From Eledone cirrhosa (lineage: Eukaryota), in contig OZ024741.1 in assembly GCA_964016885.1 (NCBI GenBank), positions 184,202,001 through 184,266,000 of the forward strand: 64,000 nt of DNA, written 5' to 3'. The notes under the pieces are model-generated. The model saw nothing but the letters and a program-made list of their open reading frames with translations, was not told the origin of the DNA and did not search any database. The first letter of the stretch is position 1, and every line of letters begins with the position of its first letter. Of the stretch, positions 9,595 through 36,755 are shown piece by piece. Both the position numbers and the translations under genes were made by a program.

Positions 9595-9886
9595 ATGTAT
9601 GTATGTATGTATGTATGTATGTATGTATGTATGCGTGGGCGTGCCTGCTTGTGAGAGTGCTTTTCTGCGTGAATGTCTTTGTTTAAATGAATACGTGAGT
9701 ATAATGATAATACACATAGTTATGGGCATAACATTGAAAAATGGTAGTATGTATGTATATATATATATATATATGTATTTAACACTCTCTCACTTTCTGT
9801 ATATATATCTATATATCTATCTCTATATATATATATATATATATATATAGAAAGATTTGAATGGATACAGTTTAGTTGAAAGGAAT

Positions 9887-10003
9887 TTATTGACACGTGT
9901 TTCTATAACAGTTACATAACCTAAAACAGCTATCTACAAACTTTTAGTTATGCAGACATTCAATATTTCAATGTTATTATTTACTGTCATTTCATCAGAA
10001 TAA
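9887..10003 (-). ncRNA. pLTR hammerhead of the PLE (left arm)
   Basis: Mirror copy of 15869-15985. Confidence 0.8.
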
Positions 10004-10570
10004 TATTACTGAGGACCTATTTAGTTTTTATAGAGAATATTAGGAGGGAGGGGTGAAGTTGTTAGAAGAATAGTTGAAGGAGTGGTTTTTCGATAGCAGT
10101 GAGAATTCTTGGTGGCAGTGAGTAATTAGATTCCCATCTGTTGTTTTGACATTTTTTATAGAATATATTATTGGTTATTTTTCTAAATCTATAGAAGGAT
10201 TAGAGATAGTAAAGATATGCGTGGTTGGTTTTGTGTTTGCACTTAATTAACATTCAGACTTAAATTTTTCTTTCGAGTGTACGTATCCTTTCACCCACGC
10301 ATTCACACACAAATATATTTGCACACCTCTACAAAATACATATACTCACAATTCACATATTCATACTTACATATATATACACATGCATACACATATATAT
10401 ACACACATGTATTCATGTACATACATACGCGCTCATGTGTATACATTTTCATACTCAACTTATCTTTATATACACACGTATAGACACACACATATATACA
10501 TACATACTCTAGTCCATGTGTACACACATACACATACATACACATCCATATACACATACATACATACACA

Positions 10571-10626
<56 letters not shown>

Positions 10627-10643
10627 TACACACATATACATAT

Positions 10644-10690
<47 letters not shown>

Positions 10691-11003
10691 TACACACATA
10701 TACATATACACACACACATATATATATATATATAAGCACTTTAATACATGAATACACTTACATCTAACTATACACATCAAACATATATATATATTTACTT
10801 ATTTATATACATTTTCACATATATATACATACTTATGGACGTTTTTAGACACATTCATTATCGCATATTTGTACCTATTCTCATCAGCATATCTTTTCAT
10901 TATTAGTATGGTAATTTAAGGTTATTAATATATGTTGAGAAGAGATTGTTTTTATATTTTTCTAACTAGATTAAGGTTTATATAGTTGGGGGATGTCCCT
11001 CTT

Positions 11004-13326
11004 TTATGTAATATTCGGCTTGTAGTGGGAAAAAAGGGTTTTAGTTCTGTGACGGCAGAATAATGTTCGTTCAATTCTGTTATTCAGCAGTTTCTTCTTG
11101 TGTGTGATTATGTAATAAATCTCAAGATTACACAATTTGCAGAAATTTTGGCTCCTGGAAAAGCTTTGGGTTTTAGCTAATTTTTCCCATTTTAGGGTAA
11201 ACTTTTGATTGCTATCCCTGAGCGTCCAAGCTTTTTCTGCTAAAGTTGTTACATTTCTTTGGCTCTGGTGTTTTATTGAGTAAGAATGCCTATACAATCG
11301 AGATTTAAACGATGTTGCCGTTGATCCCACGTAATACCACTCGTTGCCTCCGGATTTAATGGTACACTTATAAATAATATTTTTTTCCAGGCAGTTATTG
11401 CCGAGGGGGCAGTTGTCAGGATAGGTGCAGTTACAGTTGTGTACGTTGGGTTTTCTCTGGAGTAGTATTGCGGACGAACTTAGGTGTGGTTTATTTATGT
11501 TCTGTAGTGTATTGTCTACTGTTTTTTTTTGAGTTCTTTGTACTTAAGTTCTTAGTGTTTTCGTTTAACCTTCTAGTATTGATCTTTTTTATGTGTTGTT
11601 CAAGGTTTAACGCTGTAGAGTATGACAGTCTTATAGTGGTAGGGTTTAGGATTTTGTGGTATTTGTGTGATGTGGGAAAATGTCTTTTAATTATTTTAAA
11701 GAAGAGTACTGGTAAATTTGTACTAATGGAGCTATTGTATTCGGGGTTATACCATAAGTACTCTTTGCATCGCTTTCTATTAGTTTTGTTTGTTGGTTTA
11801 CTGGTGTGCATACTATAGTAGTGAGTGTGGTTTGGTGTTGTGTTATTATATCTACCTATGTGGGATTTATTTTGGGTGTTTTGATTGTTCCCATCTATGT
11901 ACTCTATTTTGTTGAGGTAGCCTGCTTTACTAAGGGCGTTATCGTAGTACTCGGCGTGTTCCTTAAATACTTGTATGTTAGAAGATAGACCCGAGATTCT
12001 AAGGGAAATATTTTTAGGGATAGATTTAATTATAGAGATGGGGTGGTTAGACCCAACATTTACGTATTTGAGATTTTCATTCAATTTATGAAACGGTTTA
12101 ATCAAACCAGAGTTTAAATTGAGTGTGACATCCAGGAAGTTAACTACTTTAAGGTTGTATTCATATGTTATAGTTAGTCCTATTTCGAGTAGTAGTTTTC
12201 TTATATCTTTGCGTAGTTTTTCTAGTTTTTGGTTATTAAGGTTTTTAGCTAGGAGGAGAACATCGTCGCGGTATATTCCGCCGTGGAGATTGCTGAATTT
12301 TTCCTGGAGTCTAAAGGCGATAAATAACCCCACAATATCAGTTATTTCCGCCGAATCGTTAGAGCCCATTGTTATGTCAAAGTTAGAGGGTCTATCTTTA
12401 CGTACCCAATAACTGTTCTCAAATTTGACTATAGTTTTCCTAGCTTCTAATATAATCTTAATTTCATCGTTTGTAAGGTCAGAGTTATCCTTAGCAAACT
12501 TAATGGCTCTATTCAAAGTTTCAGGTGATATCGATGAGTAATATTCATTGATATCAAACTGGATAAACTTAGATTTATTCTTATTGCTAATGCTATTAAA
12601 CCATCTTATTGCTTCTTGGGTCTTCCCCCAGAGTTTAATGTTAACCTTAGCCTTAATTTGGGGGATGATTCTATCTAAGATATATTTGCTTATTTTACCT
12701 ATATCTGATTTAGAGGGGCAGATTAATCTAATTTTAGGGTCATTATCAAAGTTTACCTTGTGGTCCTTAAGATTGAAGGTGGGTACCGCCGGTAAGATGG
12801 TCCTGTCCTATCTTCGATTCCGAGATTTTTCACTATTTCGCATGCCTCATCATTGATGTGCTTAAGGGTTACTTCACTCGTTTTTCTATATTTTTTATGT
12901 AATTCTTTTCGAATGAAGTTGTTGTATGTAGTGCAATCCATAGTGTACAGGTTTGATGTTTTGTCCGCTTTTACTACAATTCCTTTGGTGTTTTTAAGGT
13001 CGTCCAGTAGTTTTTTTTATATCTTTCTGTAATTTGCTGTTGGTGTTGCGTCCTTTGAATTTAATTTTAAGGATTAAGTTCATAAGGTCCTGCTCAAATG
13101 CATCTAATAGTGGGTTGGTGGGTGGGTTTTTACAAGTCCTAAAACCGAATTTGTTGTTTACACCACTTTCTAATGTTGAGTTCATACGGCTTCTATCATA
13201 GTGGAGCGTTTTCCACCTGACACGTCGAATGAATTCATTAGTTTTTTGAATCATGCTCAATAAATATTCCTTTCTACCTTGGGTTGGTATGTTTTTGAGT
13301 GACATATCCAGGTAGTGTTTTTCCAT
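11004..13326 (-). pseudogene. PLE polyprotein (about 770 aa reconstructed): reverse transcriptase plus GIY-YIG endonuclease, 3 frameshifts
   Basis: SLKNIP..RVRWK, KADKT, LKDHK..RLICPSK, FIQFDINEYYSSI, MGS, YRDD, NFLDVTL, CNC-x5-CPL-x3-C, IIYKC..YVGST, CKLC..CRH. Shifts at the A8 run 13011-13018, at about 12800, and at the A9 run 11522-11530. Confidence 0.93.
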
Positions 13327-13404
13327 TGTTGTGGTTGCGTTTGCTGTGTGGGTTGCTCGACTTTACAGGAGGTAAATATACAGTATTTTCCGTTGTGTTG
13401 TAAT

Positions 13405-14868
13405 ATGAAATTAAGATTATATTAGAAGCTAGGAAAACTATAGTCAAATTTGAGAACAGTTATTGGGTACGTAAAGATAGACCCTCTAACTTTGACATAA
13501 CAATGGGCTCTAACGATTCGGCGGAAATAACTGATATTGTGGGGTTATTTATCGCCTTTAGACTCCAGGAAAAATTCAGCAATCTCCACGGCGGAATATA
13601 CCGCGACGATGTTCTCCTCCTAGCTAAAAACCTTAATAACCAAAAACTAGAAAAACTACGCAAAGATATAAGAAAACTACTACTCGAAATAGGACTAACT
13701 ATAACATATGAATACAACCTTAAAGTAGTTAACTTCCTGGATGTCACACTCAATTTAAACTCTGGTTTGATTAAACCGTTTCATAAATTGAATGAAAATC
13801 TCAAATACGTAAATGTTGGGTCTAACCACCCCATCTCTATAATTAAATCTATCCCTAAAAATATTTCCCTTAGAATCTCGGGTCTATCTTCTAACATACA
13901 AGTATTTAAGGAACACGCCGAGTACTACGATAACGCCCTTAGTAAAGCAGGCTACCTCAACAAAATAGAGTACATAGATGGGAACAATCAAAACACCCAA
14001 AATAAATCCCACATAGGTAGATATAATAACACAACACCAAACCACACTCACTACTATAGTATGCACACCAGTAAACCAACAAACAAAACTAATAGAAAGC
14101 GATGCAAAGAGTACTTATGGTATAACCCCGAATACAATAGCTCCATTAGTACAAATTTACCAGTACTCTTCTTTAAAATAATTAAAAGACATTTTCCCAC
14201 ATCACACAAATACCACAAAATCCTAAACCCTACCACTATAAGACTGTCATACTCTACAGCGTTAAACCTTGAACAACACATAAAAAAGATCAATACTAGA
14301 AGGTTAAACGAAAACACTAAGAACTTAAGTACAAAGAACTCAAAAAAAAACAGTAGACAATACACTACAGAACATAAATAAACCACACCTAAGTTCGTCC
14401 GCAATACTACTCCAGAGAAAACCCAACGTACACAACTGTAACTGCACCTATCCTGACAACTGCCCCCTCGGCAATAACTGCCTGGAAAAAAATATTATTT
14501 ATAAGTGTACCATTAAATCCGGAGGCAACGAGTGGTATTACGTGGGATCAACGGCAACATCGTTTAAATCTCGATTGTATAGGCATTCTTACTCAATAAA
14601 ACACCAGAGCCAAAGAAATGTAACAACTTTAGCAGAAAAAGCTTGGACGCTCAGGGATAGCAATCAAAAGTTTACCCTAAAATGGGAAAAATTAGCTAAA
14701 ACCCAAAGCTTTTCCAGGAGCCAAAATTTCTGCAAATTGTGTAATCTTGAGATTTATTACATAATCACACACAAGAAGAAACTGCTGAATAACAGAATTG
14801 AACGAACATTATTCTGCCGTCACAGAACTAAAACCCTTTTTTCCCACTACAAGCCGAATATTACATAA
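13405..14868 (+). pseudogene. 5'-truncated inverted duplicate of the PLE ORF (RT C-half plus GIY-YIG)
   Basis: ORFs 13503-14381 and 14542-14868 translate identically to the minus copy and share the same A9 frameshift at 14342-14350. Confidence 0.92.
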
Positions 14869-15181
14869 AAGAGGGACATCCCCCAACTATATAAACCTTA
14901 ATCTAGTTAGAAAAATATAAAAACAATCTCTTCTCAACATATATTAATAACCTTAAATTACCATACTAATAATGAAAAGATATGCTGATGAGAATAGGTA
15001 CAAATATGCGATAATGAATGTGTCTAAAAACGTCCATAAGTATGTATATATATGTGAAAATGTATATAAATAAGTAAATATATATATATGTTTGATGTGT
15101 ATAGTTAGATGTAAGTGTATTCATGTATTAAAGTGCTTATATATATATATATATGTGTGTGTGTATATGTATATGTGTGTA

Positions 15182-15228
<47 letters not shown>

Positions 15229-15245
15229 ATATGTATATGTGTGTA

Positions 15246-15301
<56 letters not shown>

Positions 15302-15868
15302 TGTGTATGTATGTATGTGTATATGGATGTGTATGTATGTGTATGTGTGTACACATGGACTAGAGTATGTATGTATATATGTGTGTGTCTATACGTGTGT
15401 ATATAAAGATAAGTTGAGTATGAAAATGTATACACATGAGCGCGTATGTATGTACATGAATACATGTGTGTATATATATGTGTATGCATGTGTATATATA
15501 TGTAAGTATGAATATGTGAATTGTGAGTATATGTATTTTGTAGAGGTGTGCAAATATATTTGTGTGTGAATGCGTGGGTGAAAGGATACGTACACTCGAA
15601 AGAAAAATTTAAGTCTGAATGTTAATTAAGTGCAAACACAAAACCAACCACGCATATCTTTACTATCTCTAATCCTTCTATAGATTTAGAAAAATAACCA
15701 ATAATATATTCTATAAAAAATGTCAAAACAACAGATGGGAATCTAATTACTCACTGCCACCAAGAATTCTCACTGCTATCGAAAAACCACTCCTTCAACT
15801 ATTCTTCTAACAACTTCACCCCTCCCTCCTAATATTCTCTATAAAAACTAAATAGGTCCTCAGTAATA

Positions 15869-15985
15869 TTATTCTGATGAAATGACAGTAAATAATAACA
15901 TTGAAATATTGAATGTCTGCATAACTAAAAGTTTGTAGATAGCTGTTTTAGGTTATGTAACTGTTATAGAAACACGTGTCAATAA
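15869..15985 (+). ncRNA. pLTR hammerhead with branched stem II
   Basis: ttatt-CTGATGA-a-atgacagt..(two inner hairpins)..actgttat-a-GAAA-cacgtg-TC-aataa. Predicted cleavage after C15980. Confidence 0.8.
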
Positions 15986-16132
15986 ATTCCTTTCAACTAA
16001 ACTGTATCCATTCAAATCTTTCTATTTTTCTCCGGATTACTTTTGGAACTACAACTGGAACCGTCGAGCAAACTCTACGTGAGCTGATAATCTACTGTGT
16101 GTAATATTTATATTACAACACAACGGAAAATA

Positions 16133-17400: not shown

Positions 17401-17922
17401 AATGCTCAGTATTTATACTTTGAGCTTGTTTAATTGCAGGGTATCAATATGAGTTAATAACTCTGTATTTTATTTGTATTTCGGCTCCCTATCTGGGTGA
17501 GCTTATAAATTGAGTGTAATAAGACTATTATTTCTAGCATAACCCCTCATACCACGTACAGCGTGCAGCCCACAAGGAGCATACTTTTACTCCTCCGGTT
17601 GCTGTTAGATGTGTTTTGTTTCATTTGATCTAATCTCTCGCTGATGATAGCCTACAGATTATCTGTTACAAACACAATTTTCAGGGCGAAACAGATTAAA
17701 TCCCTAATCTGTCCGAGAGGTGAAATGTTTTTGATACGGTCAGTATAAAATTATATCCTACTTTATGTTTAAGATAAAATATTTAAAACATTTGTGGTAT
17801 TCTTTACCCTCGTAATTTTAGACACGAAATTTACTGTTTATTTATAAAATGCTCAGTATTTATACTTTGAGTTTGTTTAATTGCAGGGTATCAATATGAG
17901 TTAATAACTCTGTATTTTATTT
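17401..17922 (+). mobile_element. Non-coding HHR element, 447-nt unit with 75-nt terminal direct repeat
   Basis: 17401-17475 matches 17848-17922; ends in (TA)n; inverted fragment at about 17245-17294; contains a canonical HHR. Confidence 0.75.
17635..17719 (+). ncRNA. Canonical type I hammerhead ribozyme
   Basis: ctctcg-CTGATGA-ta-gcc..ggc-GAAA-cagatta(aatccc)taatctg-TC-cgagag. Stems I and III are perfect. GUC site at 17711-17713. Confidence 0.88.
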
Positions 17923-21534: not shown

Positions 21535-22046
21535 TTACATATATAGATACATGCATATATACATAATACACACACACTCATATATATATATATCATATAA
21601 GCTCCCTTCTTTGCTGTGATCCGTCTCTTTTCTCTCCCCTTGATGCTATCCTCTCCCCCCCTCCTCTCTCCTTCTACCTCTTACTTCCGCTCACCCCCTC
21701 TTCTAGTCACCTTTTCTCGGCTAGCCTCCCACTATAACTACCTCTTTCTCGCTTCCTCTTACTTTCACTCACTCCCTCTCTGCTAGTCATCCTCTCTCCG
21801 CTAGCTCACTTCCTCCCTCCTCCGCCACTGTACACAGTCTCTTCTCTCGCTAACACTGCTACAGCTAAGACGTTTCTTTTTTCTCTCTCGTCAAAATTCG
21901 CCAGTTCTTACGTTCGAAATGAGTTGACTCGATATTTTCCTAATTTTCCTCTCTTTACGTTGCTTCATCTTTCATGTCTGTTTACCCCCCCCCCCTCCTT
22001 ATTTTATCCCAATAACTTCTTTTAGTTATTGTTCGCCCTAGGCTGA

Positions 22047-22110
22047 GGTATATTGTCTCTAACGAGAAGAAATACCAATGATTCTTAGTAGACAACTGAC
22101 GAGGATATCC
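22047..22110 (+). ncRNA. Candidate non-circularly permuted hammerhead
   Basis: ggtaT-A-ttgtct ... GAAAtacc ... agacaa-CTGACGA. Stems III and I are in exact register with the core; stem II is not evident. Confidence 0.45.
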
Positions 22111-22909
22111 CTTTCTTTCGCCCGTAACTTTTATTTTTCATTATATATGTATACAGGCACACACACATATATATATATATATATTTGTTATGTGTATTTG
22201 ATGTATACATTCGTATGCGTGCAGATACAGGCGTTGCGTGGGTTCTGTATGTGCGTGCGGGCTAATTTTTATTTTTTTTTAATTCTTGTGTACGTGCGTG
22301 TATTTGTATACATATGGCGAGTGTTTTCGCGTATGCTTGTGTATGTTCGTATATGGGTGCGTGTATTTATTTATTTAATTTCAATTACCTCTGTATATTT
22401 TTTACTTTATTCTTAACTCTGAAGCCGAGAATCATTCGGTTTCCTAGTTAGAATGTTAGTCTACGCCTTCAGTTATACCATTTACGTGGTTTTGTCTTTG
22501 CGCGCAATTGTTCTCCCCGACCCACATATGACGTATTATCTTCGTTTTTTCCGTTCATTGCCAGAGAACGTCTCTATGAACCACCTAATAGAATATTAGT
22601 CTACGACTTCTGTTATACCTTAAACGTGGTTTTGTCTTTGTGTGTAATTGTTTTTCACCGTTTCAAATAATTGTTTCTAATTTAGGCACAAGGCCAGCAA
22701 ATACCCAGTGCATTACGGGTACTTTATTTTATCGACCCCGTAAGGATGAAAGGCAAAGTCAAACGCTACAAATAATGACGTATTATATTCGTTTTATCCC
22801 GTTCTTTGCCAGGGAACGTTTCCACAAACCAAAATATCGTCTTCCTGTCTTCCTCCGGTTGCAACGTTTTTTGAAATATTCACTTCTGCGTTCACAGATT
22901 GATTTTGTT

Positions 22910-24929: not shown

Positions 24930-25259
<330 letters not shown>

Positions 25260-25348: not shown

Positions 25349-25421
25349 TCCATCATCAGCTGTAAATGTTTCCCGAACCGATGTTTCGGCGCTGAATTAC
25401 AGGACATCGGTGTAGTTCGGG
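25349..25421 (-). ncRNA. Candidate non-circularly permuted (pseudoknotted) hammerhead
   Basis: Minus strand: cccgaac-tac-accgatgT-C-ctgtaa-ttcagcg-cc-GAAAcatcggt-tcggg-aaacat-ttacag-CTGATGA-t-gg. Perfect core, 8-bp stem III, 6-bp stem I, 2-bp stem II. Confidence 0.6.
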
Positions 25422-25885
25422 TGCGCGCGAGGCCTTTTATTAATCAAAAGGCCAGGTGTAAAAGGAGAGAGAAAGAGAGAAAAAAAGGGGGAGAAAAAGT
25501 GAGAAAGAAAGGGAAAGAGAGGGAAAGGAGGAAGACCAGGGGAGAAAAAGATGAGGAGATAGGAAGAAGGGGGAAATATAGGGAAGGAATAGGGGAAAAA
25601 AAGTGTACAGGTCCCATTGTGGGAAGACACAGGTGAAAGAAACATGCACAAAAGTCACCGTGGAAAAATAGGGAAAGTAAGTTGTGGCCAACCTGGGAGA
25701 CTTTAGCCTGGTGGTCAGCTACGACTCAGAGCTGGTATAATCATGCTGCCTCTAACGAAGTAAGTGTGGTAAGGAACCACGTGGACCATAACGCACCAGA
25801 GTACTCGATACTTAGAGTAGACCTAGCTGTCGAAACGGCCCGAGCTCAGCCGTCACGGTCCCGACTCTTTTGTTATATATATATG

Positions 25886-35701: not shown

Positions 35702-36755
35702 TACAATATGTTGAAAAGGTAACACACTATAGAAAGACAGAGTGCCATCAATAAAACAGGTAAAACCACCAGTGTATGGAATCTATAATCTATGGAAGGC
35801 AGGGTAGACACACAATAATTAAAAATATAAACTAAAATGTATATACGCACCTCTATAACTATATAACACACGCGTACAAATCCAAAGAGATCTGTTTCGC
35901 CAGGAAGTTGTTGACTGAAATGGAATAGCCTATGGCTCATCAGCGCGTGCAAGACTATACATTCCAGACAACTCTAAGAGAATCTAAAGCGACCGTCCAG
36001 CTACACCCGGCAGAGAGATGTCACAGCGTGTTTAGGGCAGTGAACCAGTGGTATCTGAGGGACAAGCTGCTAGAAAGAGCAGCCCCAAAGCCACTCAAAG
36101 AGGTGTGCTCAACCAAACAGAGAGAGAGGAAAGACTGTTATAAGGATCGAAATATCATAATAAATTAACGGAGCCATAGAGTCTCGTTATTCCCTGTCAA
36201 TAATGTGCTCAAAGGAAAAGGAATCCTGAGCTCTTTAAAATACAATATGTTGAAAAGGTAACACACTAAAGAGAGAGATAGTGTGCCATCAATAAAACAG
36301 GGAAAACCACTCCTTATAACAGTCTTTCCTCTCTCTCTCTCTGTTTGGTTGAGCACACTTCTTTGAGTGGTTTTGGGACTACCCTTTCTAGCAGCTCGTC
36401 CCTCAGATACCACTGGTTCACTGCCCTAAACACACTGTGACATCTCTCTCCCACGTGTAGCTGGACGGTCGCTTTAGATTCTCTTAGAGTCGTTTGGAAT
36501 GCATAGCCTTGCACACGTTGATGAACCATTTCAGTCAACAACTTCCTGTCGAAACAGATCTCTTTGGATTTGTATGCGTGTGTTATATAGTTATAGAGGT
36601 GCGTATATATATTTTAATTTATATTTTTAATTATTGTGTATCTACTCTGCCTTCCATATATTATAGATTCCATACACTGGTGGTTTTCCCTGTTTTATTG
36701 ATGGCACACTATCTCTCTCTAGTGTGTTACCTTTTCAACATATTATATTTTAAAC
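35702..36755. mobile_element. Non-coding HHR element, 539-nt unit, partial tandem plus inverted copy
   Basis: 35702-36146 is inverted against 36311-36755; the terminus is repeated at 35702 and 36241. Confidence 0.82.
35869..35949 (-). ncRNA. Canonical type I hammerhead ribozyme
   Basis: cacgcg-CTGATGA-gcca..tggc-GAAA-cagatc..gatttg-TA-cgcgtg. A decayed plus-strand copy lies at 36511-36580. Confidence 0.88.

Follow-up and report, generated by a model that had tools for sequence, protein, structure and literature searches.

A candidate S-G-C-ordered hammerhead with a surrogate stem II in a short non-coding repeat of Eledone cirrhosa

Introduction

Hammerhead ribozymes of types I, II and III carry their core blocks, CUGAnGA (block C), GAAA (block G) and the cleavage site (block S), in the circular order C-G-S or a rotation of it. 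The order S-G-C was described as type SGC by Eckert et al. (2023, PMC10085705; HRIMA-1, SGC variants). Natural type-SGC RNAs are reported there to cleave in vitro as single units, with rates of 0.007–0.19 per min for the ribozymes tested. Stem II was formed from block C in all of these, block C was assumed to be uninterruptible, and stems I and II are connected by a fourth helix. Type-SGC hammerheads were found in metatranscriptomes, and none in the genomes of known organisms (PMC10085705); non-circularly permuted hammerheads have thus far been environmental only, with neither a known host nor a known role. The literature covered here, outside which most subscription papers fall, contains no report of SGC hammerheads in animals or Naiads.

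Animal non-LTR retrozymes are short non-coding repeats tied to Penelope-like elements (Cervera and de la Pena 2020, PMC7229834). Their hammerheads are of type I, and the searches for them used no other models than those of type I (PMC7229834; Li et al. 2026, bioRxiv 10.64898/2026.07.22.740005). Naiads have been reported to be without canonical hammerheads, some of them having "half cores", and the cephalopod Naiads are described as long inactive (Craig et al. 2021, PMC8557442); the same paper suggests that hammerheads may merely ride on Penelope-like elements.

The present analysis concerns a motif in a 64,000-nt stretch of Eledone cirrhosa DNA (GCA_964016885.1, contig OZ024741.1, positions 184,202,001–184,266,000, forward strand), referred to as the window. 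An earlier sequence-only reading had taken the motif for one of a family of hammerheads with reversed strand order, an order that is itself already described as type SGC.

Results and Discussion

Strand order and occurrence beyond chance

Every strand quoted in the sequence-only reading lies on the plus strand where it had been placed (Table I), and the blocks follow one another from 5′ to 3′ as S, G and C. The circular order C-G-S, or any rotation of it, was not obtained for this motif with an order-blind descriptor. The start had been set too late, at 22047; the motif begins 15 nt earlier, at 22032. CUGAnGA, GAAA and UH all lie at the junction, and the window copy keeps 11 of 11 core bases, as do 21 of its 30 nearest copies. 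By analogy with hammerheads, cleavage is predicted 3′ of A22052 (H17).

Table I. Coordinates of the motif, its host element and the sister motif (positions in the window)
Feature	Position	Strand	Basis
Host element of family A, 553-bp non-coding repeat, (TA)n-flanked	21593–22145	+	Copy alignments
UUCGC, upstream strand that forms the 5′ half of surrogate stem II	22032–22036	+	86% of cells paired, double changes in 3/5 pairs
Stem III extension, 5′ strand CUAGG	22038–22042	+	94% paired, double changes in 4/5 pairs
CUGA, non-bulged strand of predicted kink-turn	22043–22046	+	Sequence pattern
Block S: stem III GGUA (22047–22050), U16.1 (U22051), H17 (A22052), stem I UUGUCU (22053–22058)	22047–22058	+	Sequence, descriptor and covariation
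Block G: GAGAA (3′ half of surrogate stem II), core GAAA (22069–22072), stem III UACC (22073–22076)	22064–22076	+	Alignments
Bulge AAU (3 nt), kink-turn GA and UU, stem III extension 3′ strand CUUAG	22077–22088	+	Alignments
Block C: stem I AGACAA (22090–22095), core CUGACGA (22096–22102); following U of most family copies absent	22090–22102	+	Sequence and family matches
Family B sister motif, wired alike but with other stems; kink-turn replaced by a 5-nt bulge	25353–25427	−	Descriptor and alignment

A comparison with dinucleotide-shuffled sequence had been proposed in the sequence-only reading. With the order-blind descriptor, two S-G-C sites were found in the window (the motif studied here and that at 25.4 kb) versus none in 60 dinucleotide block shuffles; the same descriptor gave six ordinary type I matches in the window. 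A strict descriptor applied to 40 evenly spaced 10-kb genome stretches (400 kb) returned four S-G-C sites, versus a mean of 0.08 in 25 shuffles. The window motif is confirmed as real, beyond chance. Genome-wide, a loose pattern in which GAAA, the bulge letters and, 27 nt further on, CUGAYGA were the only fixed positions yielded 15,019 matches, and the reversed control 4; for the non-U complement of the pattern, the corresponding counts were 535 and 10. As the pattern was built from families already found, these counts measure abundance and are not independent discovery. Searches of Rfam gave no hammerhead match on the motif and no match at gathering score, and the 150 listed of 329 matches in the window comprise only microsatellite-driven miRNA matches. 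The family B motif in the window has a change of its own at 25427, by which the opening pair of its upstream helix is lost; the other 29 aligned copies are mostly intact at this place.

Fold and covariation

Two covarying helices were identified beyond those of the earlier reading. One joins 22032–22036 to the five bases 5′ of GAAA. The other pairs 22038–22042 with 22084–22088 and extends stem III, from which it is set off by CUGA opposite a 3-nt bulge and GA. The alignment of the motif family derives from 161 matches, reduced to 110 distinct sequences and 35 clusters, from which 19 representatives were picked by eye; the 16 clusters left out showed indels, 5′ truncation or apparent decay, and addition of the window copy gave 20 rows. 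The selection script demanded the core words and most stem I and III pairs, which favours the structure, and did not demand the two new helices. Across the 20 rows, 93.8% of 418 cells pair, and both sides change in 15 of 21 pairs. None of 500 shuffles reaches the observed level of covariation, a comparison that kinship of the rows can inflate, and slid structures pair in 29–48%. Stems I and III, which flank the cut, are paired in 96.6% and 98% of cells, respectively, in part favoured by the selection script. Among 3,403 column pairs ranked by corrected mutual information, the top five are all proposed pairs, as are 10 of the top 25; the pairing of the strand 5′ of stem I with the upstream strand of the stem III extension accounts for ranks 1, 3, 5 and 10. 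An extension of stem I by CUAA/UUAG, proposed from the window copy, did not hold up, its last two pairs being kept in only 58% and 42% of the 19 subfamily rows.

Compensatory changes occur in all four helices across diverged subfamilies, bearing out the covarying family that the sequence-only reading had expected; its interpretation as a family of reversed-order hammerheads is supported. The same changes already refute the highly improbable account in which a chance arrangement in one founder was multiplied by transposition, an account to which the absence of S-G-C sites from all 60 window shuffles is also contrary. In favor of such a founder, copies within a family are not independent and Rfam has no hammerhead match to offer, although its models presuppose circular orders.

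Stem II is not where a canonical hammerhead would have it. Positions 10.2–11.2 and 10.3–11.3 are paired in 26% and 0% of the 19 rows. For the base 5′ of GAAA (11.1), the upstream strand offers a pairing partner in 10 of 19 rows and the base after CUGAnGA does so in 14; a partner of either kind is present in 17. The helix that closes the core next to G12 is the upstream helix, 86% paired; with stem II supplied by this strand, the opening in the core would fall between A9 and position 10.1. Decay of the copy or a different fold had been offered as reasons for the missing stem II, and both apply: the upstream strand supplies the stem, and the window copy is partly decayed. The G-opposite-A gap seen in the window copy is filled in family copies, which was the outcome sought from a consensus. 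Two other partners were considered and rejected. The GGA-nnn-UCC stretch after CUGACGA forms only one pair with the strand 5′ of GAAA (a small hairpin is present within it in families A, B and D, not C), and a second UUCGC (22117–22121) is not common to other families. Minimum-energy folding, within whose reach crossing helices do not lie, gave mixed folds. H17 is A, C or U and never G in the 19 rows, and no selection was made for it.

In the proposed structure, stems I and III would form as in any hammerhead. Stem II would be built with the strand that precedes the cut site, the base after CUGAnGA contributing one pair at most. Stem III would be bent by the kink-turn, or by a 3- or 5-nt bulge in other subfamilies, its far end reaching stems I and II through 1-nt linkers.

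A kink-turn consists of a helix, a 3-nt bulge, tandem G-A/A-G pairs and then further pairs. CUGA at 22043–22046, opposite the AAU bulge and GA, presumably represents this consensus. Both G-A/A-G positions are kept in 29 of 30 family A copies. Among the subfamilies, G occupies the third place of the CUGA strand in 12 of 19 rows and the kink-turn pattern is present in approximately 12 of 19; about a third of rows are without it. The element thus qualifies as a kink-turn at the level of sequence pattern, and the bend is predicted. In a clade related to family B (L166–L195), the kink-turn positions are now ordinary pairs and a 3-nt bulge is left, providing a natural test of what the hinge needs. 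No report joining a hammerhead stem III to a kink-turn was found in the literature covered, most subscription papers lying outside it, and the word "kink" occurs 0 times in the text of PMC10085705 as available.

The window family shares with the type-SGC ribozymes of PMC10085705 the S-G-C order, a complete CUGAnGA/GAAA/UH core, stems I and III, a short connection between stem I and the block G strand of stem II, and several crossing helices. In contrast to these ribozymes, its block C is interrupted and stem II comes from an upstream strand; an extra helix extends stem III through the kink-turn or bulge, and a helix joining stems I and II was not found. A further difference is that the window family consists of animal genomic repeats, whereas the type-SGC examples are from metatranscriptomes.

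The same pairings could in principle be made between molecules, as covariation is blind to cis versus trans and does not separate the two. In such a swapped dimer, one unit would lend its upstream strand and block C to the core of another, in a tandem transcript or between circles, and single units would be slow. Tandem and inverted neighbors are common, and with stems II and III coaxial, linkers of only 1–2 nt could hardly span the distance from stem III's far end without a sharp bend. Two Naiad examples, identified by eye among the published consensi, have 9–13 straight pairs before any hinge, and dimer cleavage is reported for small Penelope-associated hammerheads. However, most variants have their hinge (kink-turn, 3-nt or 5-nt bulge) 5–7 bp from the core, followed by 6–9 bp, as a monomer folding back on itself needs, and natural SGC ribozymes cleave as single units, according to the type-SGC report. 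A dimeric arrangement is considered unlikely.

Host element and repeat families

The motif lies approximately 90 nt from the 3′ end of the 553-bp repeat, in which the longest ATG-initiated ORF has 47 codons' worth of product (47 aa). Family A copies have a common 3′ end that runs into (TA)n and are truncated at varied points at the 5′ end; they are often adjoined by an inverted partial copy, with a tail of approximately 35 nt at either end. The tandem unit measures approximately 580–590 bp including this tail, which the window copy does not have, and tandem spacings range from 458 to 611 bp. A first look gave 1,686 family A candidates in the 3.0-Gb genome, 40 of which were scored, and three further families sampled gave 968, 1,450 and 2,066 candidates. 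Copies of family C are approximately 99% alike and lie in head-to-tail arrays. Between diverged families, the bin containing the motif is 71–84% identical, versus 30–59% in the other internal bins (the first bin reflects an end effect). A family A unit of 458 bp, internally deleted and with the motif intact, recurs as tandem arrays on four contigs (L234, L235, L249, L250, L270).

As in the animal retrozymes, the units are short and non-coding, solo or in tandem, and carry one hammerhead each. In contrast to retrozymes, the 460–610-bp units bear the SGC form instead of type I, and they are known here from genomic DNA alone.

Genomic copies are bounded by (TA)n at both ends and run through the cut site, which fits circular or uncut templates and lends no support to cleavage. 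A pile-up of 5′ ends at the cut was not seen (1 of 71 within 3 nt), and the 3′ half of the motif shows a mild excess of 5′ ends (27 of the 71 nt hold 12 of the 20 ends; p = 0.04, post hoc). This distribution of ends is among the points in favor of a conserved structure that does not cleave or does so very slowly, a hammerhead-derived pseudoknot that would protect the 3′ end or be bound by the reverse transcriptase (RT) of the element or by a host protein that recognizes kink-turns. The irregularity of stem II would suit such a role, as would the suggestion in PMC8557442 that hammerheads may be passengers. The role is nevertheless improbable, given that G is never found at the unselected H17 in the 19 rows and that the full catalytic core recurs with wholly different stems in cnidarian, acanthocephalan, crustacean and cephalopod Naiad consensi (PMC8557442).

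Relation to Naiads and candidate partner enzymes

The repeat resembles Naiads (PMC8557442) in its (TA)n targets, 5′ truncation, inverted and tandem partial copies and 30–40-bp tail; this anatomy is common to other Penelope-like clades and is therefore not Naiad-specific. In contrast to Naiads, the element has no ORF and so no N-terminal GIY-YIG with C-terminal RT. The same wiring was recognized by eye near the 3′ end, on the sense strand, of Naiad_Obim, Ovul, Plae, Amil, Aacu, Anas and 2_Movir (file S5 of PMC8557442), and in one unnamed consensus in the arthropod part of that file. The file was surveyed by eye and not systematically over its 54 consensi; at least eight fits were found, with three coral and two octopus entries being near-duplicates. 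In the fitting consensi, the upstream helix has 5–6 bp, and Naiad_Obim and Ovul share with family A a kink-turn-like loop and a similar upstream context. Within the same material, Naiad Bfor and Esco fit only partially, and several nematode and other Naiads have CUGAnGA before GAAA instead. The base after CUGAnGA mismatches the C 5′ of GAAA in the fitting Naiads, and an upstream G pairs with that C, a pattern suggesting that the split core came first. The motif likely derives from Naiad 3′ ends, and it is likely the ribozyme that Naiads were reported to lack.

Three Naiad patterns gave no match to a Naiad reading frame in the genome, and scans for RT signatures near motif loci detected no linked RT. 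None of 50 GIY-YIG loci has the Naiad order, and where an RT was seen the elements were all of the C-terminal-nuclease kind. These loci come from the best 150 of 10,597 candidates, which were the ones scored, so that absence of a Naiad ORF is not established. Penelope-like elements with a C-terminal nuclease include open frames of 938, 844 and 1,096 aa (L306, L307 and L308), and elements of this kind could act as helpers in trans.

The window copy is probably a slightly decayed copy of an S-G-C hammerhead core within an abundant non-coding repeat, with self-cleavage predicted after A22052, and would likely cut tandem transcripts into units for retrotransposition. Transcripts of tandem copies would be cut into unit-length RNAs, the monomers would be circularized by a host ligase, as in animal retrozymes, and the circles would be copied into (TA)n sites by a Penelope-like RT with a GIY-YIG nuclease. 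The balance of evidence leans, less firmly, toward a wider reading: a natural active hammerhead with its core opened between A9 and stem II, rebuilt from four strands and hinged by a kink-turn, which would be the missing Naiad ribozyme across several animal phyla and would drive a retrozyme class with >15,000 copies in a single genome, invisible to searches for types I–III.

Should cleavage prove true, a non-circular permutation of the hammerhead would be common in animals and would gain a biological context, and the published view of Naiads as multiplying without hammerheads would have to be revised. An uninterruptible block C would no longer hold as a rule, so that ribozyme searches could be cast more widely, and cleavage could be coupled to a host RNA-binding protein through the kink-turn in the ribozyme.

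State of the window copy

The window copy retains stems I and III. At 22065, A is found only in this copy among the 30 nearest (25 have C and 4 have U); this private C22065A change breaks the middle pair of the upstream helix and brings the duplex to −0.9 versus −4.6 kcal/mol. The family form of this strand is GCGAA, versus GAGAA in the window copy, and the 3′ strand of the stem III extension is CCUAG in the family versus CUUAG in the window copy, leaving a G-U wobble. After CUGACGA, an extra base is present in 196 exact family matches and missing from 8, and is U in 98 of the 100 listed. As read from the alignments, this U pairs with the base 5′ of GAAA in most family copies, and the window copy is without it. 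The base is also missing in 18 of the 30 nearest copies, which therefore represent a minority subfamily that nonetheless spread to at least 18 loci, a point against the preferred reading. In 56 full-length motifs recovered from 60 regions chosen by their 3′ half, H17 is C in 49, the position equivalent to 22065 is C in 51, and the upstream helix is complete in 35. With both U10.1 missing and C22065A present, the window copy is probably weakened, and it is doubtful that it still cleaves well. Within a notable family, it is an unexceptional copy that has partly decayed.

Other features of the window

Several further repeats lie in the window. A 2,621-bp perfect inverted repeat at 9847–16025 contains an RT with a C-terminal nuclease, Penelope-like and split over shifted frames (11004–12807, minus strand; 13404–14868, plus strand); Pfam gave no match here, and the Penelope-like label was accordingly assigned by eye. 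At 17626–17736 (plus strand) and 35852–35958 (minus strand) lie two hammerhead-like sites of type I, related to each other and each with a long insert in stem II; they probably derive from canonical Penelope-like ends. A perfect hairpin of approximately 50 bp per arm at 25034–25220, an inverted partial copy of another short repeat, adjoins the family B element. At 52990–55850, a duplicated unit of approximately 2 kb has perfect inverted arms of 302 bp and contains four weak type I descriptor matches.
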